Source: Candidatus Aminicenantes bacterium (GTDB taxonomy: Bacteria > Acidobacteriota > Aminicenantia > Aminicenantales > Aminicenantaceae). Taken from it: a DNA stretch of 55,115 bases. The notes beneath the pieces are model-generated. The model was not told the origin of the DNA and did no database searches. It worked only from the letters and a program-made list of their open reading frames with translations. The translations under genes and the position numbers were made by a program. Positions 13,619 to 55,115 of the stretch are shown in pieces (position 1 is the stretch's first letter; each line of letters opens with the position of its first letter). The DNA is taken from NCBI GenBank assembly GCA_030669305.1, contig DAOVDU010000004.1:1-55115 (forward strand). Direction: 5' to 3'.

Positions 13619-13652
13619 TTACGACTTACGACTTACAGCTTACGGCTTACGA
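13619..13652. repeat. Degenerate heptamer tandem (TTACRRC)x5
   Basis: TTACGAC TTACGAC TTACAGC TTACGGC TTACGA. The same unit recurs at 17777-17802 and 17930-17948. Confidence 0.85.
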
Positions 13653-13695
13653 ACTTTACATATTTGCACAAAATCCCTGATTAGAAGGAGTCGCC

Positions 13696-13899
13696 ATGAG
13701 AGAATGCCAAAAAGAACAAAATCTTCAAAATTGCAACTGCACATGGGAGCCCTGCAGCCACAAAGGAATCTGCTGCGAATGCATCCAGTATCACTGGAGA
13801 ATAAAAGAACTCCCTGCCTGCCTTTTTCCCGATGATGTGGAAAAAACTTATGACCGCTCTTTGAGAAGGTTTATCGAGGTATATAAAGACAAGATATAG
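13696..13899 (+). CDS. Small Cys-rich protein (DUF6485-like)
   Basis: [16 protein letters not shown]...ELPACLF pattern. SD AAGGAG. Confidence 0.75.
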
Positions 13900-13905
13900 G
13901 AAACG

Positions 13906-14853
13906 TTGAATAAATCAGAAGATAAAAACAGCTGTGTTCATATCTACGGCCCTGTGCCCTCGAGACGCCTGGGTTTCTCTCTCGGGATAGATATTATTCC
14001 CTTTAAAACATGTACTCTTGATTGCATTTACTGTCAATTAGGCCCGACCACCAGGAAGACTATACGGAGAAAAGAATATTTCTCATCTGAAGAGATTTTA
14101 GCCCAAATTAAAATGAAACTTGCCTCAGGCCAGAGAATTGACTACATCACATTTTCTGGCTCAGGAGAACCAACCCTAAATACTTCAATAGGAAAACTCA
14201 TCAAAGAAATCAAAAAGATAACAGCAATCCCTGTAGCCGTGTTGACAAACAGTACTCTTCTTTCCCGAAAAAGTGTAAGAAATGCTTTGCTATCTGCTGA
14301 TTTTATCGTTCCGTCTTTGGATGGAGTGACTCAAGAAGTTTTTGTTCAAATCAACCGGCCTCATCCATCACTTAAGGCTGAGGAAATCATAGAAGGCTTA
14401 AAAAAATTCCGACAGGAATTCCACGGCTCGATGTTGCTCGAAATCATGTTAGTGAAAGGGATAAATGATTCTCCCGTCCATATCCAAAAGCTTAAAAAAG
14501 TAATCTCCGATATAAAGCCAAAAAGAATTCAGCTCAATACGGTTATCCGGCCTCCCGCAGAAAAATTTGCCTGTTCTTTGAGTCTAGTGGAACTTAAAAA
14601 AATTAACAAAATCTTAGGCGAAAAAGCCGAGATTATCGCTAAATTCGATAAAAAAGAGCAAATACCCCCATCTAAAAATCTGGAAGAGGCTATTTTCTTC
14701 ATGATTAAGAGAAGGCCGGTGACTCTCTCTGATATTTCCGCCTCTCTTGGAAAACACAAGAATGAAATCATAAAATACACCAATTTTCTCCTGGAAGAGA
14801 GAAAAATTAAATGTGTCACACACAAGGGACTGAAATATTATGAACCGACATAA
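13906..14853 (+). CDS. Radical SAM protein (TYW1-like Fe-S oxidoreductase family)
   Basis: YGPVPSRRLG.SLG, CTLDCIYC and GSGEPTL motifs. Confidence 0.88.
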   Translation: MNKSEDKNSCVHIYGPVPSRRLGFSLGIDIIPFKTCTLDCIYCQLGPTTRKTIRRKEYFSSEEILAQIKMKLASGQRIDYITFSGSGEPTLNTSIGKLIKEIKKITAIPVAVLTNSTLLSRKSVRNALLSADFIVPSLDGVTQEVFVQINRPHPSLKAEEIIEGLKKFRQEFHGSMLLEIMLVKGINDSPVHIQKLKKVISDIKPKRIQLNTVIRPPAEKFACSLSLVELKKINKILGEKAEIIAKFDKKEQIPPSKNLEEAIFFMIKRRPVTLSDISASLGKHKNEIIKYTNFLLEERKIKCVTHKGLKYYEPT

Positions 14854-14908
14854 ATGGTAAATGAGGAATGGTGAATAAAAATCCTAGATTAGAGTGTTAG
14901 GAATTGGA

Positions 14909-15421
14909 ATGAAAGAAGTTAAAGATTTGACTAAAGAAGAGCTTTGGGCGCTTTTGAAAGATGCTTCCAAAAACTGGCTTGCCCATGATGGACTCTGGTT
15001 TCGAGCCGTGGAGAATAAATTCGGCATCGATGCTGCTATGGAACTTGACAGGAAGGCATGGGAAAACTTTACAGTCATCGAGGCCAAAAGGATAATGAAA
15101 AGACTCGGGATAGAACCCGGAGGAGGCATTCCAGCACTTGTCCATGCCCTTAAATTCAGACTATATGCACACATCAATGTCCAGGAAACCAAAGAAGTGA
15201 GTGACACACGATGTGTTTTCCATATGAATCGCTGTCGGGTGCAGGAAGCAAGAAAGAGGCAAGGGCTTCCCGATTTTCCATGCAAATCAGTAGGAATCAT
15301 TGAATACAGCGGGTTTGCCAAAACCATAGACCCGAGGATCAAAACCAAATGCCTGGTTTGTCCTCCTGATCCCCATCCTCCAGATGTTTGGTGTGCCTGG
15401 GAATTCACACTTTTGCCTTAA
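14909..15421 (+). CDS. DUF6125-like protein
   Basis: WLAHDGLWF, CRVQEAR..LPDFPC and CPPDPHP..WCAWEF. ATG at 14909. Confidence 0.72.
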   Translation: MKEVKDLTKEELWALLKDASKNWLAHDGLWFRAVENKFGIDAAMELDRKAWENFTVIEAKRIMKRLGIEPGGGIPALVHALKFRLYAHINVQETKEVSDTRCVFHMNRCRVQEARKRQGLPDFPCKSVGIIEYSGFAKTIDPRIKTKCLVCPPDPHPPDVWCAWEFTLLP

Positions 15422-15426
15422 CCCTT

Positions 15427-16074
15427 ATGAGTAAAGAAAAAATCAGGATTTTTGAAGAGAACTGGAAGAAATATGATGAATGGTTTGAACACCATCAAAA
15501 AATTTATCAATCTGAAATAAAGGCTATTAAGAAAGTTATTCCCACCGGCCTGGGGTTAGATATAGGTGTGGGAACAGGACGGTTCGCCTCTCCTTTCTAT
15601 GTTCAATTTGGCCTGGATCCCTCTCTTAATATGCTCCTCCTTGCTAGGCAAAGAAAAATAAAAATCATTCAGGGCGTGGGGGAAGCACTCCCGTTTAAAA
15701 ATGAATCTTTTTATTTTATCTTAATTGTGGTAACTATATGTTTCGCAAATAACCCCCATATATTTTTAAATGAAGCAGCAAGAATCTTAAAAAAGAAAGG
15801 TGAATTAATTCTAGCCATCATAGACAAAACCAGTGCATGGGGCAGATTCTATGAAGCCAAATCAACTCAAAGCAAATATTATGAAGCAGCCCACTTTTTC
15901 TCCCCAGAAGATATTCTCCAGATGTTTAATAATATCGATTTGGAATACAAAGAGTCTTATCAAACCCTTCTCCAACCGCCTCCAGATATCATAGAGATAG
16001 AAGAACCTCGAAAAGGATATGGAAAGGGTGGATTTATCGTCTTAAAAGCAATAAAAAAAGATAATGTCGTTTAA
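15427..16074 (+). CDS. Class I SAM-dependent methyltransferase
   Basis: GLDIGVGTGRF, LDPS..ML and GEALPF motifs. ATG at 15427. Confidence 0.88.
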   Translation: MSKEKIRIFEENWKKYDEWFEHHQKIYQSEIKAIKKVIPTGLGLDIGVGTGRFASPFYVQFGLDPSLNMLLLARQRKIKIIQGVGEALPFKNESFYFILIVVTICFANNPHIFLNEAARILKKKGELILAIIDKTSAWGRFYEAKSTQSKYYEAAHFFSPEDILQMFNNIDLEYKESYQTLLQPPPDIIEIEEPRKGYGKGGFIVLKAIKKDNVV

Positions 16075-16122
16075 TTTTGAGGAAATTATCAAAAATAATA
16101 TGAAGGAGTTATAGGAGTAATC

Positions 16123-17088: not shown

Positions 17089-17202
17089 AGAAATATGGCT
17101 CTTCAGACTGCAGATGTCCCAGCCATCTGTTCTATTTCTCAAAAAACAACTCTGAATTAATATCTTTAATAAAAAAACTGCCATTTGAGAAGAAGGAAAA
17201 CC

Positions 17203-17673
17203 ATGGAAATCAAATTTAAACCCATCGGCGTTGTCCACTCCCCGTTGAAAAAAAAGGAGGATATCCAATCATCAAGATCCACTGATCCCCAAGGGTTTGA
17301 TTCTGTCCAGGGAGAATTAGAAATATTTAAAGAATTCGAAGAAGGCTTAAAAGACATCGATGGATTCTCCCATCTTATTCTCCTCTTTGCATTTCATAAA
17401 TCTGAAGAATGCAGACTCTTCGCCCATCCTCCATATGATAACAAGCGGAGAGGAGTTTTTGCTACAAGAAGTCCTAATCGTCCTAATCCTATCGGGATGA
17501 CTGTTTTAAAGCTCATCCAGATAGAGCGAAATATTCTGCGAGTCTCAGGAATCGATATGTTCGAAGGCACTCCGGTTCTCGATATCAAGCCCTACACCCC
17601 AAGAGATCAAAAATCCCCTATCAAACTTGGATGGCTGGAAGATAAAATAAAGCAAGCACCAAAATCCCAATGA
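17203..17673 (+). CDS. trmO: TrmO/TsaA family tRNA methyltransferase
   Basis: KPIGVVHS, GVFATRSPNRPNPIG and GTPVLDIKPY. ATG at 17203. Confidence 0.88.
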   Translation: MEIKFKPIGVVHSPLKKKEDIQSSRSTDPQGFDSVQGELEIFKEFEEGLKDIDGFSHLILLFAFHKSEECRLFAHPPYDNKRRGVFATRSPNRPNPIGMTVLKLIQIERNILRVSGIDMFEGTPVLDIKPYTPRDQKSPIKLGWLEDKIKQAPKSQ

Positions 17674-18071
17674 CCGAAAACTATATAGGTCTAAGGTTGA
17701 ATGTTTAATGTTTAAGGATTTATAATAAATTAAAAATATTTATACCTTAAACCTTAAACTTTAAACCTTAAACCCGTTACGGCTTACGATTTACGGCTTA
17801 CGTCCATGGGGAATACTGCAATACTGCTAAACTGCCATACTGCAGAAGAATAAGAAAATGGTAAATGGTTAATGGTAAATAGTTAATAGCTTTCTTGCCT
17901 TAAACCTTAAACTTTAAACCTTAAACCCGTTACGGCTTACGGCTTACGAATGTTGCCTTAAACCTTAAACTTTAAACCTTAAACTAATTCGTATGGGATT
18001 TGGGATTTTAATATTAGCCACGAGCAATAAGCCATAAATGTAATTTTGGAGCAATAGAGCGCTTATCCACA
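17653..18071. repeat. Composite heptamer-palindrome element, expanded copy A
   Basis: 17653-17773 is near-identical to 31243-31363, and 17985-18071 is similar to 31364-31454. Three exact 29-mers CCTTAAACCTTAAACTTTAAACCTTAAAC at 17745, 17898 and 17956. Confidence 0.92.
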
Positions 18072-18196
18072 TAAAAGGGGGAATAGCCAAATAATTCTAC
18101 GTTTCTATCATTTCTAGCGATTTTTTGATATATTCTTTACACGGTAAAAAATTGTTAAATTCTTCAAACATTAAATTCCCAAAAGGAGGTAAAAAA

Positions 18197-24021: not shown

Positions 24022-24954
24022 ATGTTAGAAGATTTTCTTTCCATCCATGATTTAAGCCCTTATCAATTTAGCAAAATCTTAGACTTCATTCAGCAAATTA
24101 AAGATAAACCTTGGCGTTTTCGAAATAAACTCAAAAATAAAATCCTGGCCATGATATTCCAAAAGTCATCTTTACGAACCAGGGTAACTTTTGAAGTCGG
24201 CATGCTTCAACTCGGAGGAGAAGCCATTTATTTAAGCCCATCAGATATTCAACTGGGTACCCGTGAGACCCCGTATGATGTTGGCAAAAACCTGGAACGT
24301 TGGGTAGATGGAATTATAATAAGAACCTTTTCCCATCAAATTGCCGTTGATTTAGCTCAGGTCTGCCACATCCCAGTCATCAATGGCCTAACAGATCTTC
24401 TTCATCCCTGCCAGGCCATGGCTGATTTTTTCACTCTAAAGGAAAAGCTGAGAGGTCCAGCGAATTTAAAGCTGGCGTATATCGGAGATGGAAACAATGT
24501 CTGTCACAGCCTTATCTTTGCAGCCGCAAAAGCTGGGAGCAAAATGAGGGTGGCAACACCTCCTGGATATGAGCCAAATCCAGAAATTCTCAAACAAGCA
24601 GAACAAGATGGAAGGGAAACAGGATTCAGTTTCTACATTACAAATGACCCATATGAGGCAGTTCAAGAAGCAGACGCTGTCTACACCGATGTGTGGGCCT
24701 CAATGGGACAGGAACAAGAAAAGGAGAAAAGAACCAAAATCTTTGCCCCCTACCAGGTCAATCGTGCACTCATGACAAAAGCCAAGAAGGACGCCCTATT
24801 TATGCACTGCCTCCCTGCCCACAGGGGAGAAGAGGTCACCGACGAAGTTATCGACTCTGCTCAATCTGTAGTCTTTGACCAAGCTGAAAACAGGCTTCCT
24901 TTCCAAAAAGCCATTATGTTATCATTATTAGAAAAAAAAGCAAAAAATGGATAA
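24022..24954 (+). CDS. argF: Ornithine carbamoyltransferase (probably catabolic, from context)
   Basis: SLRTR, HPCQ, GDGNNV, DVWASMG and HCLP. Confidence 0.93.
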   Translation: MLEDFLSIHDLSPYQFSKILDFIQQIKDKPWRFRNKLKNKILAMIFQKSSLRTRVTFEVGMLQLGGEAIYLSPSDIQLGTRETPYDVGKNLERWVDGIIIRTFSHQIAVDLAQVCHIPVINGLTDLLHPCQAMADFFTLKEKLRGPANLKLAYIGDGNNVCHSLIFAAAKAGSKMRVATPPGYEPNPEILKQAEQDGRETGFSFYITNDPYEAVQEADAVYTDVWASMGQEQEKEKRTKIFAPYQVNRALMTKAKKDALFMHCLPAHRGEEVTDEVIDSAQSVVFDQAENRLPFQKAIMLSLLEKKAKNG

Positions 24955-27025
24955 GCAAAACGAAAACATAAAAATCATTGATGCAGACCTCTCTTTCATA
25001 GAAAAAGAGCTCTCCCAAACCAACAAAGCTCTTTCTCTGTATGAGCTGACAAAAAAATTAGCCTTCAAAAAAACCGCCAGTCAATTAAGCAAAGAAGTCA
25101 AAAAATATGATCCTTACTGCCAGTATGAAGTCGGAGATCTTATCTATAAAAAATACGACGAACCCTTGATGGTCAGCAGTAAAGGCGTTGAGCCCTTTGA
25201 CGGAGCTGTTGTGCTTGTAGTTATCAAGAAAATTACATATGAAAATTTCAACTGTGAGATGCTGGAAGTCGATTACACTGGAGGAGGAACTTTCAGAAAA
25301 CACATAGATTATATGAAAAAAACAAAGACTCAAGTTCTCCTACCCAGCAACCTCGAAGGAAAAGCATTGGCTCCAGAGATGCTGAAAAAAGAGGAAGACC
25401 CAAGGCTTCATCAACTTCCAATGGCTAATAAAGATTTAAAAACCCTGGAAAAATATTTGGGAACAGCACTCTCCAAGTCAGCAGCTTTTTTCAACTGGAA
25501 TGACCTTTGGCAGCAAAAAGAAAAACAAGTGGAAATCCCGCAAGAAAAAATAAAAGCAATTGAAAATCATTTCTTGAAAACGAATAAATCTGCCACAACA
25601 ACAGAACTGGTTTCTCAATTATTTAACTTTGATCCTTCAAACGATCTGTTTGATATCCACTGTATCAGTTTGAATTACATATTAGAAAAAAAATTCAAGA
25701 AAACTTATACCTTTGTTTCATCCGACAACTGGGGAAAATGGCATTTGAAGAAAATCCTCGACTCCTTACTGGAAAATCTTCCTCTCTCATCACCGAAGGC
25801 TAAACTCCCTCCGTTTGAGGAGGAGAAAAAAACAGAAACAGCTCAAGCCCAGAAGTTCCCGTTTAGAGTCTATCTTACCTGGAGAGAAATTCTATCCGGT
25901 GGATTTAAAATTCCCAGAAGCCTGAACAAGGAGTTATCTCACTCAAGAGAATATGTTTTTACTGATATAGAAAGTGGGAAGGATTATACTGTTTATTACT
26001 TCCCATCTCCTAGCATTTTTCTTGGTTTAAAAGAATTTTTTGAGAGTAATAATGTCCCTCAAGGAGCAAGCTTATCTCTTGAAAAGAAAGGACCTACACA
26101 TATCAGTTTCTGGCTTAAGACATCAAAGAAGAAGCTTTCTGTATCAAAGGTCGCCTATGATCCAAAAGAGGATATATTTTCTGAGACAGGCGAAGAAGTT
26201 TTCACTTTCTCTTTGCCCAACAAAATCATTCACTTAAAAATAGAAACCTTAAACAAACTTTTTTCCCTTTACGGCCAAAGAGATGACATGGATCTTCGGG
26301 AACTTCTGATCCTAATCTTCAAGAATTTTGGCCTGGAGGGAGAGGCTCTATTCCTACATTTTCTGAGAGCTTTTCATCTTGTCGACATGCTAAAGCAAAC
26401 TAACCAGGAAGATGTCGAAAAAACACTGCTTTTTTCTCCTGAATTTTCCAGATCAGAAAAAAATAAAGGGGTCTTTTTCTATCATGAAAAGATAAAAACT
26501 GAAGGAGAATTAAAGCCTGAAGAGCCTGTCGAAATTCCTTTAGAAATGCTGCCCGAGGAAAAGCTTGAAGAATATCCTGATGAAGTTCTCCCTGAACTGG
26601 GAACGATTGAAGAAATTCCTTTACCTGAACCCCCAAAAGAAAGGGAAGAAATAATAGAAGAGGTGAAAGTTCAAGTTCCCTCTGAACTTCAAAAAGAAGA
26701 AATTCAAAAAAGGCCAAAAAAAGAGAAACCCCCAAAAAAGAAAAAACGGAAGGCAAAAATAGACAAAGAAAGTACTCTTCGCATGAGAAAAGGGGAGAAA
26801 AAAATTATAGAAGAACGAATTGAGTTTGAAGAATCAGAACAGGAAGCTTTAATCGCTGTTAAAGCAAAAGAAAAAAAGGAAGACGTTGGAGAAGAAATAG
26901 CAGCCTATAAAGCAAAAGAAAAAAAGGAAGAGTATGAACCTATTGTTACTCAGAAGCCTGAATTTGGTATATTTGCTGAAAAGCTAAAATCAGCTTTAGA
27001 TAAAAAAAAGAAAAAGAAAAAATAA
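24947..27025 (+). CDS. Large hypothetical protein with a Glu/Pro/Lys-rich C-terminal tail
   Basis: 692-aa ORF overlapping the argF stop. No recognised motif. Confidence 0.8.
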   Translation: MDKQNENIKIIDADLSFIEKELSQTNKALSLYELTKKLAFKKTASQLSKEVKKYDPYCQYEVGDLIYKKYDEPLMVSSKGVEPFDGAVVLVVIKKITYENFNCEMLEVDYTGGGTFRKHIDYMKKTKTQVLLPSNLEGKALAPEMLKKEEDPRLHQLPMANKDLKTLEKYLGTALSKSAAFFNWNDLWQQKEKQVEIPQEKIKAIENHFLKTNKSATTTELVSQLFNFDPSNDLFDIHCISLNYILEKKFKKTYTFVSSDNWGKWHLKKILDSLLENLPLSSPKAKLPPFEEEKKTETAQAQKFPFRVYLTWREILSGGFKIPRSLNKELSHSREYVFTDIESGKDYTVYYFPSPSIFLGLKEFFESNNVPQGASLSLEKKGPTHISFWLKTSKKKLSVSKVAYDPKEDIFSETGEEVFTFSLPNKIIHLKIETLNKLFSLYGQRDDMDLRELLILIFKNFGLEGEALFLHFLRAFHLVDMLKQTNQEDVEKTLLFSPEFSRSEKNKGVFFYHEKIKTEGELKPEEPVEIPLEMLPEEKLEEYPDEVLPELGTIEEIPLPEPPKEREEIIEEVKVQVPSELQKEEIQKRPKKEKPPKKKKRKAKIDKESTLRMRKGEKKIIEERIEFEESEQEALIAVKAKEKKEDVGEEIAAYKAKEKKEEYEPIVTQKPEFGIFAEKLKSALDKKKKKKK

Positions 27026-27108
27026 AATTCTTAAGCATTTTACTTGAACCCCTGACCCCTTGACCCCTTGAATCCTTATGATCCTACCAACTCTTTTGGA
27101 GATGAGCC
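27026..27108 (-). repeat. 83-bp element end (upstream flank plus first codons of a four-helix-bundle gene)
   Basis: Reverse complement is 79/83 identical to 54976-55058. Contains (AGGGGTCA)-like 8-mer repeats and ATGCTTAAGAAT. Confidence 0.92.
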
Positions 27109-27120
27109 ATAATTATTTAA

Positions 27121-27158
27121 ACTCCTCACTTCTTACTCCTTACTCCTAACTCCTTACT
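27121..27158. repeat. Degenerate heptamer tandem (ACTCCTN)n
   Basis: ACTCCTC ACTTCTT ACTCCTT ACTCCTA ACTCCTT. The same unit occurs at 31461-31484. Confidence 0.8.
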
Positions 27159-27185
27159 TTTTAATTAGTTTTGAATTTTGAGTTT

Positions 27186-28271: not shown

Positions 28272-28356
28272 TGGGCCACTCCTTTTTTGGCTTATATCTA
28301 AATTGAATATTTAATCATAGCTTTAAATTTTCAAATGTTCAAAGCAATATTTTCAA

Positions 28357-28511
28357 AATTCCAAAGCCCAAATCACAAATTCCAAATAAGCACCAAAATT
28401 CCAATGACAGAAACCTATATTGGTTTAAGGTTGAATGTTTAATGTTTAAAGATTAATAAAAAATGAAAAATATAAATACCTTAAACCTTAAACTTTAAAC
28501 CTTAAACTAAT
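28357..28511. repeat. Composite heptamer-palindrome element, copy C
   Basis: Outer arm CCAAATCACAAATTCC (28368-28383), inner left arm GGTTTAAGGTTGAATGTTTAATGTTTAA and exact 29-mer right arm at 28479-28507. Abuts the rnr stop codon. Confidence 0.9.
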
Positions 28512-30578
28512 CTATTTGGATTTTCCTGAAGAGAGTGTCAAAGTCATCCTCCTCAAGATAGGATCAACGGAAGCAAGGATGACTTTCAGCCTGTCTCCTA
28601 GCTCATATATCCTGCCTGTTCTCCTTCCGATAAGAGTTCTTTCTGATTTCCTAAAATAATAATCTCTGCCTAAATCACTAAAAGGAATTATTCCATCAAC
28701 AAAATAATCATTAAGTTCTACCACCAACCCCGCCCTCGAAACATCAACAATCACTCCTTCAAATTCATCCCCGAGTTTCCCCTTCAGGAATCGAAAAATC
28801 CTCCACTCTATAATATCTCGCTCAGCTTCACCTGCTTTTCTTTCCTGTTCGGAACAGTAAAGAGAAATCGCTGAGAGTGAGGAGGCTTTCGCTTTTTCTT
28901 GCCTGAGGGCACTTTTTAAGATCCGATGAACAGCCAAATCTGGATAACGCCGAATAGGAGAAGTGAAGTGAGTATACTCTCTTTTTGCAAGCCCATAATG
29001 CCCCTCATTCTCATCAGAATAAACAGCAAGTCTAAGGCTTTTGAGCACTTGTAAAGTAATAAATTTTTCTTCAGATTTTCCTTCTGCTTGTTTTAAAGCA
29101 CTCTGCAAATTTATTGACTTAATTTTCTTTGGAAGTGGGAGATAAATGTGAAAATGACTCAACATTTCCCGAAGCCTTTCCAGGTCTTCCAAAGCAGGAG
29201 GAGGATGAACCCTGAATATCAAGGGAATATCCTTCCCAAAAAGAAAAACAGCTACTGCTTCGTTAGCAGCGACCATGAATTCTTCTATAATCTGATGTGC
29301 TTCGTTTGTCTCGAACAGCACTACTGAATGGAGGGTTCCCTCTTTATACACAAGCTCCGGCTCCGCAAGGTCAAAATCAAGGCTCCCTTTCCCTAACCTT
29401 TCCTTACGCAGTAGGCGTGCCAAGTCCCGCATCCGAAATAAATCAGGAACTATATAGGAATATCTGTTCCGCTCTCGCTCATCCTCTTCAAGTATCTTGT
29501 AGACAGAATCATAGGTCATTCTCTCTCTAGTGCGGATCAAAGAAGGATGAAATTCAGTCTTTAAAACTTTCCCTTCTGCACTAATTTCAAGCAAAACAGA
29601 TAAAGTCAATCTTTCCTCTCTTGGCCTCAGGCTGCAAACATTGTTGGAAAGCTTCTCAGGAAGCATAGGAAGAGTCAAATCCGGGAAGTAGATGCTTGTT
29701 CCTCTCAAATAGGCTTCCTTATCCACGCATGATCCGGGTCTGACATAATGAGAAACATCAGCAATATGGACACCGAGAAGAAAATGCCCGTTTTTCAACT
29801 TCTTGATACTTACTGCATCATCAAAGTCCTGGGCGTTTTCGCCATCAATTGTTACTGTCAGCCAGCTTCTGTAATCTACTCTATCATTTCTTTCCTTCAA
29901 AGCAACTTCAGCAGAAACTTCCTCTGCCTCTTTCAGGGCCTCTTTTGAGAATGAGGAAGCCAGGTTATATCTCTTAAATACAACCTTTGTATCCACACCT
30001 TGATCATCAGGCAGTCCAAGGATCTGTTTCAAACTCAAGTTGTCTCTTTCAACCTCAACAATCATCCCGGGCTGAGGAGAAAGAGATGGGCTTTGTGTTA
30101 TCGGAATCTCCACTGAGAAAGGAGAGTCTAAAGGAAGAAAAAATGCTTGTCCCCCTTTTTCTCTGTAAAGACCTATCAAGCTCTTCTTTTCTTTTTTTAA
30201 TATCCTGACAACCTTTCCCTCAGGTTTCCCCTTTTTCCCCTTTTCCCTGTAAAATACTTCAACAACATCCCCACGTTGTGCTCCGCCTGAATATCGTGCT
30301 GGAATGAAGATATCTTCCAGTGAATCCTCATCTGGGCTGACAAATCCATAGCCTCTCAAAGAAGCGATAAATCTTCCCCTAGTAATATTCGATCTTGGAG
30401 CAATGAAATACTTGCTTTTTAACCTGAGAATAGCCCCCTGGCTTTCCATCTTTTTTAACTTTTTCTTTAACAATACTTTTTCTTTAGGTGAAAGGCCCAG
30501 TTCTCTGGCAATTCTTGCAAAATTCAAGCCTTCCCTGCGTTTTCTTAGGAGGAAAAAAATCTGTCTGACCATAACCAT
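28512..30578 (-). CDS. rnr: Ribonuclease R
   Basis: TIDGENAQDFDDA, HIADVSHYV and YTHFTSPIRRYPDL, with an N-terminal HTH/CSD and a C-terminal S1 domain. Confidence 0.95.
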   Translation of the reverse strand: MVMVRQIFFLLRKRREGLNFARIARELGLSPKEKVLLKKKLKKMESQGAILRLKSKYFIAPRSNITRGRFIASLRGYGFVSPDEDSLEDIFIPARYSGGAQRGDVVEVFYREKGKKGKPEGKVVRILKKEKKSLIGLYREKGGQAFFLPLDSPFSVEIPITQSPSLSPQPGMIVEVERDNLSLKQILGLPDDQGVDTKVVFKRYNLASSFSKEALKEAEEVSAEVALKERNDRVDYRSWLTVTIDGENAQDFDDAVSIKKLKNGHFLLGVHIADVSHYVRPGSCVDKEAYLRGTSIYFPDLTLPMLPEKLSNNVCSLRPREERLTLSVLLEISAEGKVLKTEFHPSLIRTRERMTYDSVYKILEEDERERNRYSYIVPDLFRMRDLARLLRKERLGKGSLDFDLAEPELVYKEGTLHSVVLFETNEAHQIIEEFMVAANEAVAVFLFGKDIPLIFRVHPPPALEDLERLREMLSHFHIYLPLPKKIKSINLQSALKQAEGKSEEKFITLQVLKSLRLAVYSDENEGHYGLAKREYTHFTSPIRRYPDLAVHRILKSALRQEKAKASSLSAISLYCSEQERKAGEAERDIIEWRIFRFLKGKLGDEFEGVIVDVSRAGLVVELNDYFVDGIIPFSDLGRDYYFRKSERTLIGRRTGRIYELGDRLKVILASVDPILRRMTLTLSSGKSK

Positions 30579-31228: not shown

Positions 31229-31454
31229 ATCCAAATACCAAACAAGCACCAAAACCCCAATGACCGAAAACTATATAGGTCTAAGGTTGAATGTTTAATG
31301 TTTAAGGATTTATAATAAATTAAAAATATTTATACCTTAAACCTTAAACTTTAATCCTTAAACTAATTCGTATGGAATTTGTGATTTGGAATTTTAATAT
31401 TAGCCATAAGCAAACTACCAAATGTAACTTTGGAGCAATAGACGCTTACCCACA
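31229..31454. repeat. Composite heptamer-palindrome element, compact copy B
   Basis: Matches copy A without the 211-bp insert. GGAATTTGTGATTTGG (31374-31389) is the exact reverse complement of 28368-28383. Confidence 0.92.
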
Positions 31455-31506
31455 CACATTACTCCTCACTCCTTACTCCTTACTGAAACTGTAACTGCAT
31501 TCCGCC

Positions 31507-33034: not shown

Positions 33035-33041
33035 GATCTTT

Positions 33042-33185
33042 TCAGTTAGTCAGTTAATCTGTTAGTCTGTCTGTCAGTTATCTATTTTAAATTAAAAAAT
33101 GACAATATGAAACAAGCAACTCTTTAAAAAAAATGAAAATGTCTGAATTATCGACCAACAGAGAAACGGATTAACTGACTAACGG
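33042..33185. repeat. Octamer-unit inverted repeat (TCWGTTAR / YTAACWGA)
   Basis: Left arm TCAGTTAG TCAGTTAA TCTGTTAG TCTGTCTG TCAGTTA. Right arm CCAACAGA GAAACGGA TTAACTGA CTAACGG. Same family as 52121-52247. Confidence 0.8.
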
Positions 33186-33189
33186 TTTT

Positions 33190-35977: not shown

Positions 35978-36061
35978 CTGTCGCCTTGTCACCGTTTCAC
36001 CCTGTTATCCCTTTCTTATTTAAATAAATCTGCCTACTGCTTACTGCCCACTGCCTGTTGC
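35978..36061. repeat. Degenerate 8-mer and 7-mer tandem tracts
   Basis: CTGTCGCC TTGTCACC GTTTCACC CTGTTATC, then CTGCCTA CTGCTTA CTGCCCA CTGCCTG. Confidence 0.6.
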
Positions 36062-45278: not shown

Positions 45279-45284
45279 TCAAAA

Positions 45285-45510
45285 AATCCAAATTCCAATT
45301 TCCAAATAAATTAGTTTAAGGTTGAATGTTTAATGTTTAAGGCAAAAATGCTACTTTAAACCTTAAATATTCAACTTTAAATAAAATCTGTCTTGCCTCT
45401 TTGTCTTGCCTACTTAGATAAACTTTTATACTGCTATACTGACTTACTGACTTAAATCGTGAGCCGTGAGCAGAAATAATGGTTTAAGGTTGAAGGTTTA
45501 ATGTTTAAGG
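45285..45510. repeat. Heptamer-palindrome mosaic, copy D
   Basis: AAATCCAAATTCCAATTTCCAAAT outer arm, left arm 45314-45342, right arm ~45354-45381, TACTG-based octamers, and a second left arm at 45481-45510. Confidence 0.85.
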
Positions 45511-45550
45511 AAAGAGTAGAAACAGGTTTAATTTTTTTAGAATTTGGAAA

Positions 45551-47356: not shown

Positions 47357-47493
47357 GGTTTAAGGTTTAAAGTTGAAGGTTTAATGAAAATTATGAGTAG
47401 TGAATATTACTCTCAAACTTATTTTTGTCTCCAAAATTTCAAAACGGATTAGATGAATTTCTTGCCTTAAACATTAAACGTTCAACTTTAAAC
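47357..47493. repeat. Heptamer palindrome, copy E
   Basis: GGTTTAAGGTTTAAAGTTGAAGGTTTAA ... CCTTAAACATTAAACGTTCAACTTTAAAC, located between fabF and etfB. Confidence 0.85.
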
Positions 47494-48798: not shown

Positions 48799-49047
48799 TT
48801 ACTTATTAGAGAGATTGCCTAAAACATAATCTATAGTCTTGCCAACGGTTGTCAATTTCTCCGCTTCTTCATCAGGAATATCCATATCAAATTCATCCTC
48901 TAAGGCCATGACCAATTCAACTGTATCTAAAGAATCTGCGCCTAAATCATCAATAAACGAGGCCTCTTCAGTAACTTGGTCCTCACCGATGCTAAGTTTG
49001 TCTGCAACGATAGCTTTTATTTTTTTCAGTAATTCTTCTCTCTCCAT
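48799..49047 (-). CDS. acpP: Acyl carrier protein
   Basis: [14 protein letters not shown]. Confidence 0.97.
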
Positions 49048-49095
49048 TCTTGTCCTCCTCTATATTAGATTTGTATACAAAAACATCACAGAATG

Positions 49096-49836: not shown

Positions 49837-49852
49837 TTTATGCCTTTAGATC

Positions 49853-50851: not shown

Positions 50852-50863
50852 CTAATCCCCTTT

Positions 50864-51046
50864 TTAATCTTCAGCTCCTTCCATCACCTGCCGACCTTTG
50901 TAATATCCGCATTCAGGACATGCCCGGTGAGGCAATTTTGGATTTCCACAGTTGGAACATAGGGACAGAGAGGGAACCTTAAGAGCATCATGGGCTCTTC
51001 TCTTCCCTTTTCTTGAGCAAGAATGTCTCCTTTTTGGATGTGCCAT
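50864..51046 (-). CDS. rpmF: 50S ribosomal protein L32 (Zn-ribbon type)
   Basis: MAHPKRR, CSNCG..KLPHRACPECGYY. Confidence 0.96.
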   Translation of the reverse strand: MAHPKRRHSCSRKGKRRAHDALKVPSLSLCSNCGNPKLPHRACPECGYYKGRQVMEGAED

Positions 51047-51565
51047 TTATCTTTTATCTCTCAAAAAAATTTTAAGCTTCTTGAGGCGAGGGTCAGATTC
51101 ATTCTCCATACATAAACATTCACCTTTCTTGATAATTTTCCCGCAAATGGGACAGATTCCTTGACAATCTTCACTACATAAGGGTTTCACTGGAAAAGTC
51201 AGGTTCAACTGTTCCAAAACAATCTCTTTAAGGTCTATCTTTCGGGTGTAATAAAAACATTTATTCAAGTCGTCTTTATTCAATTGATCCTTTCCAGCAT
51301 CAAGTTCTTCATGAAAAGAGACAAGATCAAAACTGGAATCGATAGGAAATTCAAATGGGAGCAGGCAACGGCTGCAGACAAAACTAAGGCAAGTACGAAC
51401 TCTTCCCTTTATTAAAATTTCCTCTCCGACCTTTCTTACTGAAATTTCTGCATGCACAGGCTCACAAAATACAGCATTTTCCTCCACAAGTTCAACATTG
51501 AAGAATTCAAAGTCTCTACAAACTTTTAGCCCTTCTGAGGGCAATCTATCAATATCTATGATCAT
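51047..51565 (-). CDS. yceD: YceD/DUF177 family protein
   Basis: CSRCL and PLCSEDCQGICPICG, DPR. Lies upstream of rpmF. Confidence 0.9.
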   Translation of the reverse strand: MIIDIDRLPSEGLKVCRDFEFFNVELVEENAVFCEPVHAEISVRKVGEEILIKGRVRTCLSFVCSRCLLPFEFPIDSSFDLVSFHEELDAGKDQLNKDDLNKCFYYTRKIDLKEIVLEQLNLTFPVKPLCSEDCQGICPICGKIIKKGECLCMENESDPRLKKLKIFLRDKR

Positions 51566-51592
51566 CTTATTTCTCTTAAAAAAAGTTACCCT

Positions 51593-51620
51593 ATTATACC
51601 ATCTTGCGTTTCTTTGTCAA
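51593..51620 (-). promoter_or_regulatory. Sigma70 promoter of the yceD-rpmF-plsX-fab operon
   Basis: Minus strand reads TTGACA-16-TATAAT, with TG-n extended -10. Confidence 0.7.
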
Positions 51621-51663
51621 CAGCATAGCCTAGCAAAACAACCAGGACGGGCAAGACAAATTT

Positions 51664-51728
51664 GGTTTAAGGTTTAAGGTTTAAGGTTACAATTTCTTTC
51701 CTTAAACCTTCTACATTAAACATTCAAC
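51664..51728. repeat. Heptamer palindrome, copy F (short loop)
   Basis: GGTTTAAGGTTTAAGGTTTAAGGTT ... CCTTAAACCTTCTACATTAAACATTCAAC. Confidence 0.82.
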
Positions 51729-51812
51729 TATTTAATAGTTCTAAAATTTTGCTTTAGATCTAATTCTGGTCTTATGTCTACGTTTTCCACAATTCACCGA
51801 CCTACTATTTGC

Positions 51813-51840
51813 TTGATATCCTGACAACAAGGAGTATAAT
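51813..51840 (+). promoter_or_regulatory. Sigma70 promoter upstream of the hypothetical gene and polA
   Basis: TTGATA-16-TATAAT. Confidence 0.5.
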
Positions 51841-51866
51841 ATTGCATGTAGGGAACAGGGTTAACA

Positions 51867-52118
51867 ATGGCTGGATATAACACAGAAGTCTCACACAAAG
51901 GATCAACCTTTCACGTTCAAACACAAGACAAAGGAATAAACGCTCATTATATCGAATCTATCATCTATAAATCCGGAAAAGTTCTCTCTTCTCGAAGAAC
52001 TTTTTACACATCTTTCCTCAACAGCCTTTATCTCAAAGATAAAATCACTCAAATCATAGAAGAACAACACAAAGCAATCCTCAATGAAATATCAGAGGGC
52101 AAATTTGATCATTTATGA
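51867..52118 (+). CDS. Conserved small hypothetical protein
   Basis: GYNTEV.HKG..FHVQTQD.G...IES.IY..G pattern, resembling an uncharacterised family. Confidence 0.75.
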   Translation: MAGYNTEVSHKGSTFHVQTQDKGINAHYIESIIYKSGKVLSSRRTFYTSFLNSLYLKDKITQIIEEQHKAILNEISEGKFDHL

Positions 52119-52120
52119 TT

Positions 52121-52247
52121 TCTGTTAATCGGTTAGTCTGTTAATCGGTTAATCTGTTAGACGGTTTGTCGGTTATTTTAATTTAAATATTTAACAGATT
52201 AACTGACTAACAGATTAACTGATTAACAGACTAACTGACCAACTGAC
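52121..52247. repeat. Octamer-unit long inverted repeat (7+7 units)
   Basis: (TCTGTTAA/TCGGTTAR)x7, an AT loop, then (TTAACAGA/YTAACTGA)x7. Ends 1 nt before the polA ATG. Confidence 0.92.
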
Positions 52248-52248
52248 A

Positions 52249-54927
52249 ATGATGAAAGAAAAAAAAATTTTTTTAATCGACGGCAATTCTCTCCTTTACC
52301 GCTCTTTTTATGCCATTCAACATCTATCTACTTCTCAAGGATTTCCGACCAATGCTATTTATGGTTTCATCACCATGCTCAGAAAGTTCAAAGAGAGAGA
52401 AAAACCTCGCTACCTTGGAATAGTCTTCGACACCAAAGGGCCTACTATCCGTCACAAAGCCTTCAAAGATTATAAAGCTCACCGTAAACCGATGCCAGAG
52501 GATTTAGTCATTCAGATACCAGTCCTAAAAAAAATCATCAAAGCCATGAAAATTCCCTTTTATGAACACGAAAACTATGAAGCAGACGATGTCCTGGGGA
52601 GCCTGGCATACAAGGCCTCCGCCCAAAATATACATTCTGTCATTGTTACTAGTGATAAAGATCTGCTCCAGCTCGTCGATAAGTCAATTACTGTCTACAA
52701 CCCTAAAAAAGAAATATATCTAGACGAAAAAAAAGTAAAAGAAGACTTCGGAGTTGCCCCTTCTCAGATTGTTGATGTCCTTGCTCTATGGGGCGATCCT
52801 TCTGATAATGTTCCAGGTGTACCCGGAATTGGAGAAAAAACGTCCAAAGAGTTGATTAATCTATTCGGCTCTCTCGATAACCTGTTGAGAAACCTTGATC
52901 AAATACAAAAAAAGCGACTGCGAGAAAAAATCGAGAACAATCTGGATCAGTTAAACCTGAGCCGCCAATTAGTAACAATCTATAAAGAATTAAACATAAA
53001 ACTCAGCCTGCAAGAACTCTCTGTATCCGAGCCAAACTATAAAGAGCTGACCCAGCTCTTTCAAGAATTAGGATTTTCTTCCCTTATATCTGAATATCTG
53101 AAGAAGCCACAAGGAATTAAAAAAAAATATAACTATATCTTAGAAGAAAAATCTCTATGCAACCTGATATCTCAAATAAAAAAAGCAAAATCCGTCTCCC
53201 TCGATACTGAAACAGACAGTCCATTCCCAACACAAGCCCGGTTAGTTGGGGTGTCTTTTGCCATAATACCAGGTAAAGCTTTCTACCTTCCTCTTCGCCA
53301 TGATTACCCCAATGCCCCAAAACAAATTCCAAAAGAAAAAGCCTTCCGCCTTCTTGAAGAGATTCTTACGGACTCCAGGATAAAAAAAATAGGACAAAAC
53401 ATCAAATATGATTATATCGTTCTTAAAAGAGAAGGAATTTCTCTTCAAGGTATAGATCTAGATACAATGGTAATTTCCTATCTCTTAGAGCCAAACTGGG
53501 GAAAACACAATTTAAACAAGCTAGCCTTAACCTATCTCCAGGTCAGAACCATCCCTTACCATGATATTGTAGGGAAAGGGAAGAATGAAGTCACAATGAA
53601 TGCCGTAGATATCAAGCAGGTAGCTCCTTATGCCTGCCAGGATGCAGATGTTGCTCTTCAACTTAGCTCAATGCTCTGGCCTAACCTCCAAGAAAAAAAA
53701 CTGGACACCCTTTACAAAAAAATCGAACTCCCCCTTATTGAAGTTCTTGCTGATATGGAAATTGCAGGTGTAAGGATTGATTCTGAAGCCTTAATAAAGT
53801 TGTCTGCAGAGCTTCAGGAGGAACTTAATCGTCTAAAAAAGAAAATCTACTCATTCAGTTGTGGAGAATTCAACATCAACTCTCCACAACAGCTCGCACA
53901 TATCCTTTTCGATAAATTAAAACTTCCTCCATCCCGAAGGACAAAAATTACTAAGGGATATTCTACTGGTTTTGATGTCCTTCAAGAATTATCCAAGGAT
54001 TTTCCTATAGCTAAACATATCCTCGAATACAGGCAGCTTGCAAAACTCAAGTCAACCTATGCTGATTCTCTTCCTCTTCTTATCAACCCTGAAACAGGGA
54101 GAATTCACACTTCTTACAATCAGACAGTGGCGGCTACAGGAAGACTGTCCAGCAGTGATCCGAACCTCCAAAACATACCGGTTAGAGGGGAATGGGGACA
54201 GAGATTCCGTCAGGCTTTCATCCCTGCGCCGGACCATCTCTTTCTCTCGGCCGATTATTCGCAAATAGAACTCAGGGTTTTGGCGCATCTTTCCGAAGAT
54301 CCCGTTTTAATCGAGACTTTTCTCCACGACCGGGATATCCACCAAGAAACAGCAGATCAGGTTTTTGGAAGCTCCGCAGCTCTCTTCAAGGAGGAACAGC
54401 GCAGGAGAGCTAAGATAATCAATTTCAGTATCGTATACGGGGCATCCGCCTTTTCTCTGGCAAAAGAACTCGGGACTTCCAATTCTGAAGCCCAGAAATT
54501 TATTTATCTATATTATGAAAAATTCCCTCTAGTGAAGGAATTCCTGGAAAAGATTGTAAACGAAACAAGGGAAAAAGGATTCTCAGAAACTCTCTTTGGA
54601 AGGCAGCGGCAGGTCCCTGAGCTCAAGCATAAAGATAAATCTGTCCAACAGGCAGGACGCCGTATCGCTCTTAACACACCGATTCAAGGCACAGCTGCTG
54701 ACTTAATAAAAAAAGCAATGATCGACATCTGGCACGAGATCAGAAAGCACAATCTAAGGAGTAAAATGATTCTCCAAGTACATGATGAGCTTGTTTTCGA
54801 GGCACCAAAAGAGGAATGTGAAGAAATAGAGGCGCTAGTTAAAGAAAGAATGGAGAATGTTTTCCCCTTAAAAGTGCCTTTAAAAGTACATCTGGGATGG
54901 GGAATCAATTGGGCCGAGGCGAAATAG
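52249..54927 (+). CDS. polA: DNA polymerase I
   Basis: IDGNS 5' nuclease, DTET 3'-5' exonuclease, ADYSQIELR, RRRAK.INF and QVHDEL. Confidence 0.97.
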   Translation: MMKEKKIFLIDGNSLLYRSFYAIQHLSTSQGFPTNAIYGFITMLRKFKEREKPRYLGIVFDTKGPTIRHKAFKDYKAHRKPMPEDLVIQIPVLKKIIKAMKIPFYEHENYEADDVLGSLAYKASAQNIHSVIVTSDKDLLQLVDKSITVYNPKKEIYLDEKKVKEDFGVAPSQIVDVLALWGDPSDNVPGVPGIGEKTSKELINLFGSLDNLLRNLDQIQKKRLREKIENNLDQLNLSRQLVTIYKELNIKLSLQELSVSEPNYKELTQLFQELGFSSLISEYLKKPQGIKKKYNYILEEKSLCNLISQIKKAKSVSLDTETDSPFPTQARLVGVSFAIIPGKAFYLPLRHDYPNAPKQIPKEKAFRLLEEILTDSRIKKIGQNIKYDYIVLKREGISLQGIDLDTMVISYLLEPNWGKHNLNKLALTYLQVRTIPYHDIVGKGKNEVTMNAVDIKQVAPYACQDADVALQLSSMLWPNLQEKKLDTLYKKIELPLIEVLADMEIAGVRIDSEALIKLSAELQEELNRLKKKIYSFSCGEFNINSPQQLAHILFDKLKLPPSRRTKITKGYSTGFDVLQELSKDFPIAKHILEYRQLAKLKSTYADSLPLLINPETGRIHTSYNQTVAATGRLSSSDPNLQNIPVRGEWGQRFRQAFIPAPDHLFLSADYSQIELRVLAHLSEDPVLIETFLHDRDIHQETADQVFGSSAALFKEEQRRRAKIINFSIVYGASAFSLAKELGTSNSEAQKFIYLYYEKFPLVKEFLEKIVNETREKGFSETLFGRQRQVPELKHKDKSVQQAGRRIALNTPIQGTAADLIKKAMIDIWHEIRKHNLRSKMILQVHDELVFEAPKEECEEIEALVKERMENVFPLKVPLKVHLGWGINWAEAK

Positions 54928-54975
54928 TATCTATTAGTCGGTTAGTCTGTTTCATTTCATTGGTTTTATATTAGA

Positions 54976-55058
54976 GGATCATCTCCAAAAGAGTTGGTAG
55001 GATCATAAGGATTCAAGGGGTCAAGGGGTCAGGGATTCGAGTGAAATGCTTAAGAATT
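54976..55058 (+). repeat. 83-bp element end, second copy
   Basis: 79/83 identical to the reverse complement of 27026-27108. Confidence 0.92.
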
Positions 55059-55115
55059 ACAAAGAATTAAAAGTTTGCACAGGAGGGAATAGGAGAGGTT
55101 GAGAGGATGCTCAAA
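55046..55115 (+). pseudogene. Internally deleted four-helix-bundle (23S rRNA IVP/bAvd-like) gene remnant
   Basis: MLKNYKELKV(C), the family's N-terminal YxxLxVW motif, is joined in +1 frame to QEGIGEVERMLK, which resembles the family's last helix. The conserved SNIAEG core is missing. Confidence 0.7.

Follow-up and report, generated by a model that had tools for sequence, protein, structure and literature searches.

Tandem heptamers termed short tandemly repeated repetitive (STRR) sequences were reportedly described in heterocystous cyanobacteria by Mazel in 1990. Here we report on a system of degenerate 7-, 8- and 9-nt tandem repeats in the intergenic DNA of a Candidatus Aminicenantes bacterium, as seen in a 55,115-nt stretch (hereafter the window), which is contig C94 (GenBank DAOVDU010000004.1) of a 2.06-Mb assembly (GCA_030669305.1; 122 contigs, 39.9% G+C, 91% complete). 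The repeats are considered together with genes of the S23p family (PF05635, TIGR02436), such as occur in the intervening sequences (IVSs) of some 23S rRNAs, and with an insertion sequence (IS) of the ISL3 family on another contig of the same genome, C43. The finding combines known kinds of element, i.e. tandem-repeat mosaics akin to repetitive extragenic palindromic (REP) sequences and bacterial interspersed mosaic elements (BIMEs), colonised by ISL3-derived cassettes with an IVS gene. Two nested repeat layers probably account for it, a reading to which we assign a probability of about 0.6.

STRRs and long simple sequence repeats (LSSRs) consist of head-to-tail units of 5-11 nt that are longer and commoner than base composition predicts, as are the arrays described here. 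In one report (PMC4679880), TAACTGA repeats are recorded from cyanobacteria, Bacteroidetes and marine Beggiatoaceae, in the last of which they lie upstream of genes. Like the repeats treated there, the present arrays have intergenic tandem units of 7-9 nt, with few copies per array and hundreds of arrays per genome; the likeness extends to a sporadic taxonomic distribution, a strain-variable copy number and a TAACTGA-containing unit upstream of some starts. They differ in that dozens of motifs are assembled into fixed composite modules, a quarter of them paired around conserved cores, and also in their Aminicenantes host, in the gain or loss of whole blocks and in the link with an ISL3/S23p cassette.

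The REPs and BIMEs of enterobacteria and pseudomonads and the pneumococcal BOX elements are high-copy intergenic palindromic mosaics, which lie mostly near gene 3' ends, vary in the number of their internal modules and are hot spots for IS insertion, the last point being made for REPs in the accessible portion of PMC1525189. The repeats studied here resemble them in all these respects, being high-copy intergenic imperfect palindromes in a mosaic arrangement. In contrast to REPs and BIMEs, their arms are tandem 7/8-mers, are far longer (with a stem of up to 56 bp) and are AT-rich rather than GC-rich. An association with a REP-associated tyrosine transposase (RAYT) was considered and rejected: the two Y1_Tnp genes of the genome (C45 and C51) have no array of the repeat kit in their immediate flanks, the TRF (Tandem Repeats Finder) rows near them being just two 2.1-copy rows of other sequence, at C45.

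The S23p-bearing IVSs of Coxiella and Leptospira 23S rRNA carry a PF05635 open reading frame (ORF) in the loop of a long inverted-repeat stem. For Coxiella, the part of PMC4990558 on which we draw describes three tandem heptamers upstream of S23p that vary in number between strains, cleavage by RNase III at the first repeat of the stem, and one strain with a 176-bp deletion in the ORF. The present elements are similar in having a PF05635 ORF within an inverted-repeat stem (in three of the four genes of the genome), strain-variable tandem heptamers adjoining an ORF, and decay of the ORF by internal deletion. They are unlike these IVSs in lying in ordinary intergenic DNA rather than at a 23S rRNA helix from which RNase III excises them, in their ISL3-type ends and 8-bp duplications, and in that an ORF is missing from most hairpins. 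This genome encodes RNase III.

Lastly, as described in the portion of PMC11448079 available, ISL3 elements of Microcystis with GG-initial ends and 8-nt direct repeats mobilise a 187-nt MITE (a miniature transposable element with inverted repeats). Like such ISL3-derived MITEs and mobile insertion cassettes (MICs), the S23p cassette with AGGGGTCA-type arrays found here lacks a transposase, has ends resembling those of a resident ISL3 element with a transposase gene elsewhere in the genome, is flanked by 8-bp direct repeats, and is present in a high number of near-identical copies at which assemblies are broken. It differs in carrying as passenger an S23p gene that has an octamer-array stem of its own, and in inserting preferentially into the cores of a different repeat family.

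Abundance and placement of the repeat arrays

Arrays were called with TRF, with an order-5 Markov simulation of the same contigs as the null. Genome-wide, rows with periods of 7, 8 and 9 nt number 801, 453 and 370, versus 78, 117 and 83 in the simulation. The ~1,565 non-redundant arrays cover 16.7% of the intergenic DNA; crudely called ORFs make up 87.8% of the genome, yet hold just 11.5% of the period-7 array bases. GGTTTAA/CCTTAAA is the commonest unit (245 TRF rows), followed by AAAACTC, TTACGGC, AAGGAGT, AAATTCC, TAACTGA-like octamers and nonamers such as AAACCAGAT.

An initial annotation of the window, made from its letters alone, had reported 7/8-nt arrays of several motifs in its gaps, and TRF places these arrays within 3 nt everywhere except at two weak sites. 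These are ~4 degenerate AATGGTA-type units at 14854-14881, directly past the stop of ORF 13906-14853, and an octamer left arm of ~3 units at 54930-54952, just upstream of a cassette insertion; both fall under the TRF score and are visible in the sequence. The TRF arrays comprise GTTTAAG/CTTAAAC arrays at 17692, 17740, 17898, 17956, 28423, 28478, 31282, 31330, 45314, 45481, 47357, 47467 and 51664, TTACGGC arrays at 13619, 17777 and 17930, ACTCCTT arrays at 27121 and 31459, an AATGGTA array at 17856, a CTGCCTA array at 36030 and AAATYCC/GGRATTT arrays at 28352, 31373, 45283 and 17994, as well as octamer arrays of the TCTGTTAA/TTAACAGA type (33042 and 52121-52247) and of the AGGGGTCA type (27043 and 55013). 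After 13.5 kb, 11 of the 14 gaps of at least 100 nt bear arrays. The first part of the window, 1-13500, is a tight operon with two HdrA-like genes, and none of its three gaps of at least 100 nt contains 7/8-mer arrays.

With respect to genes, the share of gaps that carry arrays is 40% for divergent, 29% for tandem and 49% for convergent ones, and the GGTTTAA unit shows no bias in orientation relative to transcription (57:65). Within 50 nt of an outward-facing arm, gene ends predominate over gene starts, both for octamers (70 versus 14) and for heptamers (64 versus 21). Among the 170 outward octamer arms, 44 have a stop codon within 12 nt and six abut a start codon; polA and birA account for two of these six, their TTAACTGA-type arms ending 1 and 7 nt, respectively, before the start, without a Shine-Dalgarno sequence. 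These two arrangements, at 52192-52251 for polA and at 33035-33080 for birA, bear a likeness to the TAACTGA repeats upstream of marine Beggiatoaceae genes. Shine-Dalgarno-like arrays (AAGGAGT, GAGGAGT and AGGAGTT) in co-directional gaps are found 30 times in sense and nine times in antisense orientation. The ORF of trmO (17185-17673) extends ~22 residues past the end of the family profile, its stop codon (17671-17673) being supplied by a repeat element. A scan for terminator-like sites limited to the interval 51500-52300 found none.

Pairing, nesting and shared descent of the arrays

The inverted arms proposed in the initial annotation exist. Adjacent inverted array pairs number 111, whereas 200 permutations of the motifs gave 23 on average and 34 at most, and 244 of the 999 arrays with at least three copies have a reverse-complement partner within 150 nt, compared with 28-44 in controls. 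About a quarter of the arrays are paired around conserved AT-rich cores and ~75% are unpaired, with no partner for any of the 105 nonamer arrays. The order of the arms is almost always the same, tabulated GGTTTAA-type pairs reading GGTTTAA...TTAAACC in ~66 cases versus one reversed. When folded, seven of eight window regions give z-scores from -3.7 to -12.9, none of 200 shuffles being equal, and the eighth (27037-27170), made up of solo arrays, gives z = -0.3. The nested palindromes also noted at the outset are seen at 28.3, 31.2 and 17.6 kb, where outer AAATYCC/GGRATTT modules surround an inner GGTTTAA hairpin.

The 69 GGTTTAA hairpins of the genome fall into few classes, within which unit order, loop and flanks are common to the members. 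Among the flanks shared within a class are a connector of the CAAGAATAGAAATGG type and those outer AAATYCC/GGRATTT modules that give rise to the nested palindromes. Three window copies align along their whole length; the 17.6- and 31.2-kb copies are identical at 126 of 131 positions (96%) on the left and are 84% identical on the right. Likewise, a 28-nt near-palindromic AT-rich core, with at most four mismatches, is common to 40 octamer hairpins. Copies at different loci have unit order, loops and flanks in common, so that the arrays are not microsatellites of a simple in-situ kind; the lack of common flanks and of composite structure that marks an in-situ origin of LSSRs and STRRs is not what is observed.

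The kit appears specific to the lineage. Three tandem GGTTTAA units, with up to two mismatches, are matched 482 times here versus 11 times for the reversed control; among 150 other genomes of the order, only four have any match, with a maximum of 10. At 16 loci of relatives (11 orthologous loci from other genera and the five closest ValS loci), heptamer arrays of ~4 units, with other motifs, occur at one (L003). Comparable arrays of still other motifs are sporadic, at 36 of 171 loci from many phyla. Our literature search found nothing on heptamer repeats in Aminicenantes.

Variation between strains

Public runs containing window DNA are labelled marine, cold-seep and hydrothermal sediment. The strains compared are represented by contigs of four runs from four independent studies, in which the genes match those of the window with scattered single-base differences; the divergence of ~2% (roughly 98% identity) is an estimate from the ~55% of 31-letter words shared. 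Two other runs, presumed to be of RNA, share a fraction of 0.21-0.32 of the words. Among these strains, whole repeat blocks are present, absent or resized. The initial annotation had named a lack of presence/absence polymorphism, together with arm pairing no better than that of shuffled controls, as what would speak against it; as polymorphism exists and pairing beats shuffles, neither was encountered.

At 28 kb, positions 28287-28512 (226 nt) are swapped for 12 unrelated nt in strain X6, as seen in one 2,682-nt contig. Single contigs of X6 and X10 join 31265 to 31485, with 31266-31484 (219 nt) absent and GAAA repeated at the junction, and X11 also joins 31386 to 31491. In the 17.6-kb region, X11 lacks 212 nt between two CCTTAAA arrays in direct orientation (17768 being joined to 17981), and in X10 position 17801 is joined to 18043; the 17.6-kb joints in both strains have short sides of 22-25 nt. 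X10 has 98 nt in place of the 157 nt of the window at 26992-27148. The array at 14854 is shorter by 14 nt in X6 and by 7 nt in X11, i.e. by whole units, as is typical of STRR unit numbers.

The indels of this array layer have neither fixed ends nor a regular target duplication, and so slippage or recombination between arrays fits them better than transposition. The attributes of a classical MITE, i.e. terminal repeats, a constant duplication and an autonomous relative, are not those of the arrays, and no autonomous partner for them was found in this genome. A metagenome scan with RNase R, in which no near-identical strain was found, could not be used for a comparison of filled and empty sites because its best match was only 66-67% identical. 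The RNase R gene itself has a 12-nt in-frame indel at window position 29904 relative to X5, X10 and X11.

An ISL3-family element and an S23p cassette

Contig C43 encodes an ISL3-family transposase (PF01610, E = 1e-70; NF033550, 341.6 bits versus a cut-off of 180) within an IS of 1,328 bp, which has perfect 27-bp terminal repeats and the 8-bp duplication TTTTAATT on both sides. The host site of this element is an octamer hairpin core, and the reconstructed empty core is identical to window positions 52160-52200.

There are four PF05635 genes in the genome, none of them complete in the window, which holds two fragments only. Three of the four lie between inverted arrays, each of a different kind: AGGGGTCA octamers on C50, GCAAGGCGC nonamers on C102, and 21.8 + 8.4 TCTGTTAA-class octamers on C28; the copies examined are all intergenic. 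In the window, the four-helix-bundle gene remnant that the initial annotation had recognised proved to be a miniature S23p cassette at 54976-55115 (plus strand), cut by the contig end. Its match to the C50 cassette extends over 99 nt (95%) and 25 nt (96%), with ~263 nt of the gene missing between the two stretches, and its order is an ISL3-type terminal repeat, four AGGGGTCA-type octamers, gene start, internal deletion and gene end. The other fragment lies on the minus strand at 27026-27108. It represents the left end, in truncated form, of a cassette of this type, matching that of C50 over 92 nt (96.7% identity), and consists of the terminal repeat, with the terminal motif at 27098-27108, then four octamers of the AGGGGTCA type and the opening codons of the gene. 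The stop codon of a neighbouring ORF (24947-27025; 692 residues, no NCBIfam match) abuts this truncated end.

The left end of the cassette occurs at 28 loci in the genome, with a query coverage of 80% or more at 25 of them. Identities of 97-100% are frequent among the listed copies, and several copies are situated at the ends of contigs. The 15 complete copies range from 481 bp, through 342, 316, 248, 230 (three copies), 222 (two), 214 (two), 165 (two) and 157 bp, to 156 bp. An 8-bp target duplication is perfect (8/8) in six of the 15 and matches at 7/8 in two and at no more than 5/8 in seven; in mismatched-copy controls, 8/8 was obtained in 1.4% and 7/8 in 9%. As read from the printed flanks, four of the 15 copies lie between both arms of GGTTTAA or octamer hairpins, and a further four have an array on one side. 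The right end of the cassette aligns to the IS end with a score of 9, shuffles giving a mean of -6.8 and a maximum of 6 (0 of 500 as good). The AGGGGTCA S23p cassette enters pre-existing repeat hairpins, as had been suspected when insertion into earlier copies was proposed. The companion idea, that the cassette system is without a transposase, is not borne out, as the genome holds the C43 transposase, whose element resembles the cassette in its ends and shares with it both the length of the duplication (8 bp) and the target.

A second kind of non-autonomous element, a miniature of ~330 bp, has 26-28-nt ends that are the same as those of the C43 element, and a GC-rich, possibly structured interior. 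Its copies (G000 C11:1-289, C38:1-289, C50:1-139, C96:1-163 and C36:44591-44839) are at contig ends and near repeat arms, and by reading of the printed flanks it is beside arrays at five of the six loci inspected. Rfam searches gave no matches either for the window at gathering thresholds or, at E <= 0.01, for one copy of the miniature (C11) and two S23p cassettes.

Other predictions on cargo and partners fared less well. That arm pairs in general enclose cargo is contradicted by the numbers of array pairs 150-1500 nt apart, 84 inverted versus 85 direct, and by the ordinary nature of the genes enclosed; no GxxExxY, nuclease or toxin-antitoxin cargo was seen between array pairs, and no loop in the window holds a recognisable gene remnant apart from those at 54976 and 27108. 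A reverse transcriptase had been suggested as a co-occurring partner, and the 91%-complete genome has no RVT_1 match, nor any rve match. Other transposase matches in the genome are a weak one to Transposase_mut (C42) and one DDE_Tnp_1 gene (C79). [quoted passage not shown] A CRISPR origin was rejected, as the array units are of 7-9 nt and contiguous, with no spacers, versus direct repeats of 24-48 nt with unique spacers, and the lack of a RAYT/REP relation also stands; the exclusion of IS ends does not, since the AGGGGTCA arrays lie in an ISL3-ended cassette.

Composite and solo arrays of the window

The genes of the window are ordinary housekeeping genes, including dnaE, valS, polA, RNase R, birA, trmO and Hdr-like genes, and its repeats lie between them. 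The encoded valyl-tRNA synthetase shares 71-79% identity with proteins from Candidatus Aminicenantes genomes. The largest mosaic, at 17645-18071 (TRF and alignment; hairpin fold z = -5.5), begins with a left outer module followed by an inner GGTTTAA hairpin (arms 17689-17715 and 17745-17774), continues with TTACGGC, AATACTGC, AATGGTA, CCTTAAA, TTACGGC and CCTTAAA arrays, and ends in a right outer GGGATTT module. A composite hairpin at 31233-31484 (alignment; z = -3.9) is its near-twin and is followed by an ACTCCTT array; another, at 28325-28524 (TRF; z = -4.6), has an outer AAATTCC-type module and an inner GGTTTAA/CCTTAAA hairpin (28422-28507). In a convergent gap, at 45283-45545, lies a mosaic (TRF; hairpin fold z = -7.4) in which an AAATTCC array and a GGTTTAA hairpin (45314-45385) are combined with nonamers of GTCTTGCC, octamers of TACTGACT and one more GGTTTAA arm, which has a connector of the CAAGAGTAGAAAC type.

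Simpler hairpins identified by TRF include the GGTTTAA/TTAAACA hairpin at 47357-47493 (z = -3.7), which has an 82-nt interior. This loop (47385-47466) was considered as an S23p remnant, one of its frames recalling the S23p N and C termini, and was rejected, as BLAST gave just 11-12-nt matches with E >= 0.016. The divergent upstream region of polA carries a GGCAAGACA unit with a GGTTTAA hairpin at 51655-51725 (z = -6.0) and, at 52121-52247, an octamer hairpin of 6.5 + 7 units around a conserved AT-rich palindromic core (fold -61.6 kcal/mol, z = -12.9). The latter ends 1 nt before the polA start codon, and its centre is the sequence reconstructed as the empty site of the C43 ISL3 element. A further octamer hairpin, at 33042-33186, has an interior of ~77 nt, and its TTAACTGA-type arm lies 7 nt upstream of the birA start on the minus strand. 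Solo arrays called by TRF are the TTACGAC/TTACGGC array at 13619-13652 (4.9 units, in the gap 13528-13905, with small indels in strain X11), the ACTCCTT array at 27121-27177 (5.4 units, no fold, z = -0.3) and the CTGCCTA array at 36030-36056 (3.9 units).

S23p genes and arrays in other genomes

PF05635 is present in 10 of 81 genomes sampled from the order. Of the 11 loci concerned, four have inverted heptamer arrays on both sides and two on one side; one (L177, cut by a contig end) is within 23S rRNA as judged from its flanks. Five further genomes, picked because their loci had arrays, all carry PF05635; one of them (G159) is a genome already sampled (G025), leaving four new ones, whose 14 PF05635 loci have inverted arms on both sides in seven cases and on one side in six. 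In total, S23p lies between inverted arrays on both sides at 14 of 29 loci, from at least four phyla. Array density within 150 nt of S23p is 2.83 and 4.2 per kb versus 0.07 and 0.32 elsewhere in the loci, a contrast that is overstated because the remainder used for comparison is mostly coding DNA.

The motif flanking S23p is also dispersed at gene-less sites, with 77 matches in G025 versus 0 for the control, and 13 versus 1 in G084. In the complete Aminicenantes genome G025:C1, CAGTGAG/CTCACTG inverted pairs 150-260 nt apart occur at dozens of sites (e.g. 875371-875688, 1019386-1019620 and 1904581-1904806), with interiors that are mutually unrelated, and S23p genes number only two. Inside five such G025 pairs, tblastn found no S23p trace (E >= 1). 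The S23p data leave two readings: the arrays may be part of the S23p unit, or hairpins made of arrays may be what S23p units home to. As far as our literature searches reached, the only published link between S23p and inverted heptamers is a detail of the Coxiella intervening sequence.

Discussion

The two-layer reading is as follows. The first layer would be a lineage-specific kit of 7-, 8- and 9-nt units of the STRR/LSSR kind, with ~4 units per module, the modules apparently having been built into REP/BIME- or BOX-like mosaics that fill intergenic DNA. A quarter of this layer, as inverted arms around AT-rich cores, would form long imperfect hairpins. The mosaics are presumably DNA of a selfish or neutral kind that lacks its own transposase. 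Slippage during replication, together with recombination or gene conversion driven by homology between arrays, may have spread, resized and reshuffled them, and they seem to be tolerated chiefly just downstream of genes. An RNA-level role for them, e.g. as an RNase III site or a 3' stabiliser, is possible. The second layer would comprise the ISL3-family IS of C43 and transposase-less elements using ISL3-type ends, i.e. the ~330-bp miniature and the S23p/PF05635 cassette in its own octamer-array arms, the latter decayed to miniatures through internal deletions; both kinds may be mobilised in trans by the C43 transposase. Such elements insert, with 8-bp duplications, into AT-rich DNA and often exactly into the hairpin cores of the first layer. 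Entry of second-layer elements into first-layer cores would explain both the nesting and the gene remnant in the window.

Several observations weigh against this reading or reduce its force. With respect to the second layer, the only full-length gene of a AGGGGTCA-type cassette (G000:C50:1147-1458) has an in-frame TAG, and is thus a pseudogene or read through; the left end of the cassette matches the IS end weakly (21 of 500 shuffles as good); and a single full copy of the IS is assembled. With respect to hairpins, the identity of an arm to its own partner is no higher than that across hairpins for heptamers (0.80 versus 0.82, 56 pairs) and hardly so for octamers (0.86 versus 0.84, 26 pairs), and arm-specific covariation is not seen. 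Because own arms are no more complementary than those of others, pairing follows from the presence of inverted arrays of one unit family, and thus gives no sign of selection for hairpins. The strain data are contigs, several of whose joints have short sides (22-30 nt), and the indels are unrooted by an outgroup strain, so that gain and loss are not distinguished; the 4-nt repeat (GAAA) flanking the 219-nt indel could be a short target duplication. The gene calls used across the genome are crude longest-ORF calls. Finally, S23p lies directly between inverted arrays on both sides in three of four cases here and 11 of 25 elsewhere, arrangements that leave no room for terminal repeats and therefore favour an origin of the arrays with S23p units.

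The last point bears on a proposal close to that of the initial annotation, namely that each of the array hairpins is the empty or decayed shell of a cassette of the S23p type, with the arms as cassette ends and the interior lost. For the AGGGGTCA family, whose arrays are the terminal part of a PF05635 cassette, this holds, the series of deletions from 481 to 156 bp being real; for most arrays it is unproven, and as a general account we consider it unlikely. It is encouraged by the C28 gene, which lies between octamers of the same class as those of the window hairpins, and by the recurrence of S23p flanked on both sides by copy-specific inverted 7- to 9-mers (three of four genes here, four of 11 in the order and seven of 14 in the four new genomes), including one array-flanked S23p inside a 23S rRNA gene. 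The gene-less occurrences of the flanking motif in G025 and G084 are also in line with it, as are the strain-variable heptamers and the ORF deletion of the Coxiella IVS in the part of PMC4990558 consulted. Against this, no copy among the four S23p genes of the 91%-complete genome has GGTTTAA, TTACGGC or ACTCCTT arms, or arms of the unpaired nonamers; the window loops have no significant similarity to S23p genes; and the five G025 pairs with unrelated interiors yielded no S23p. The ~75% of arrays that are unpaired, among them every nonamer array, are not expected of shells. Moreover, insertion of cassettes into existing cores with target duplications can by itself put S23p between arrays.

A further proposal, to which we give somewhat less credence than to general decay from cassettes, is that the arrays are functional binding sites for a trans-acting factor on DNA or RNA, with one small protein or dimer per 7-8-nt unit. 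Candidates would be a protein of the nucleoid or partition type, an RNA binder of the cold-shock or S1 type, or S23p as a pentamer, with a role in RNA processing, translation or chromosome organisation. The strict maintenance of unit length and of module size (~4 units) over many motifs is consistent with this, as is the position of the TTAACTGA-type arms just before the polA and birA starts, which is similar to that of TAACTGA repeats in marine Beggiatoaceae as given in the available text of PMC4679880. The frequent abutment of stop codons by outward octamer arms (44 of 170), the sense bias of AAGGAGT-type arrays in tandem gaps (30:9), and the presence of RNase III, which according to the same portion of PMC4990558 cuts the repeat-bearing IVS stem of Coxiella, also point in this direction. 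However, the blocks are dispensable, being absent beside housekeeping genes in near-identical strains; start codons are abutted by only six of the 170 octamer arms; with dozens of unrelated motifs, many different binders would be needed; the main motif has no orientation bias; and related genera have no arrays at the same gaps.

About as doubtful as a binding function is the more far-reaching idea that the arrays and the S23p (Avd-like, PF05635) genes are halves of one widespread, unrecognised selfish system. In such a system, the periodic stem around an S23p gene would be recognised, protected or propagated by the pentamer of the protein which that gene encodes. The unit would have entered 23S rRNA helices as intervening sequences, and the hundreds of ORF-less arrays here would have proliferated from it and would be served in trans by those few genes that are left. 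The least probable explanation is that of plain slippage microsatellites arising independently in each gap, without mobility, the hairpins being accidents of AT-rich units: in many bacteria, long simple repeats are most often heptamers, polymerase slippage having been proposed as their cause (Mrazek 2007, as cited in the accessible part of PMC4679880), lengths do change by whole units between strains and arm-specific covariation was not found, but the recurrence of degenerate-unit order, loops and flanks at dozens of loci, the near-invariant arm order (~66 to one), the ~5-fold excess of inverted neighbours over permutation and the presence or absence of 219-226-nt composite blocks as wholes largely refute it, with the independent runs speaking against shared flanks as assembly artefacts.

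In the two-layer reading that we prefer, a sixth of the intergenic DNA in a ~2-Mb Aminicenantes genome is a fast-evolving repeat kit that breaks assemblies and, differing as it does between otherwise roughly 98%-identical strains, provides a ready strain marker. Caution is warranted in binning and annotation, given that the repeats supply stop codons and 5' leaders. A repeat family serving as a landing pad for an ISL3 transposase and its hitch-hikers would extend the relation between REPs and ISs to a new phylum and to palindromes of a new kind. The counted cases of S23p between inverted heptamers (14 of 29 loci) make the origin and movement of rRNA intervening sequences testable. If arrays and S23p genes were indeed parts of one system, this would give the long-unexplained S23p family a function and would explain the heptamer-rich genomes scattered across phyla.

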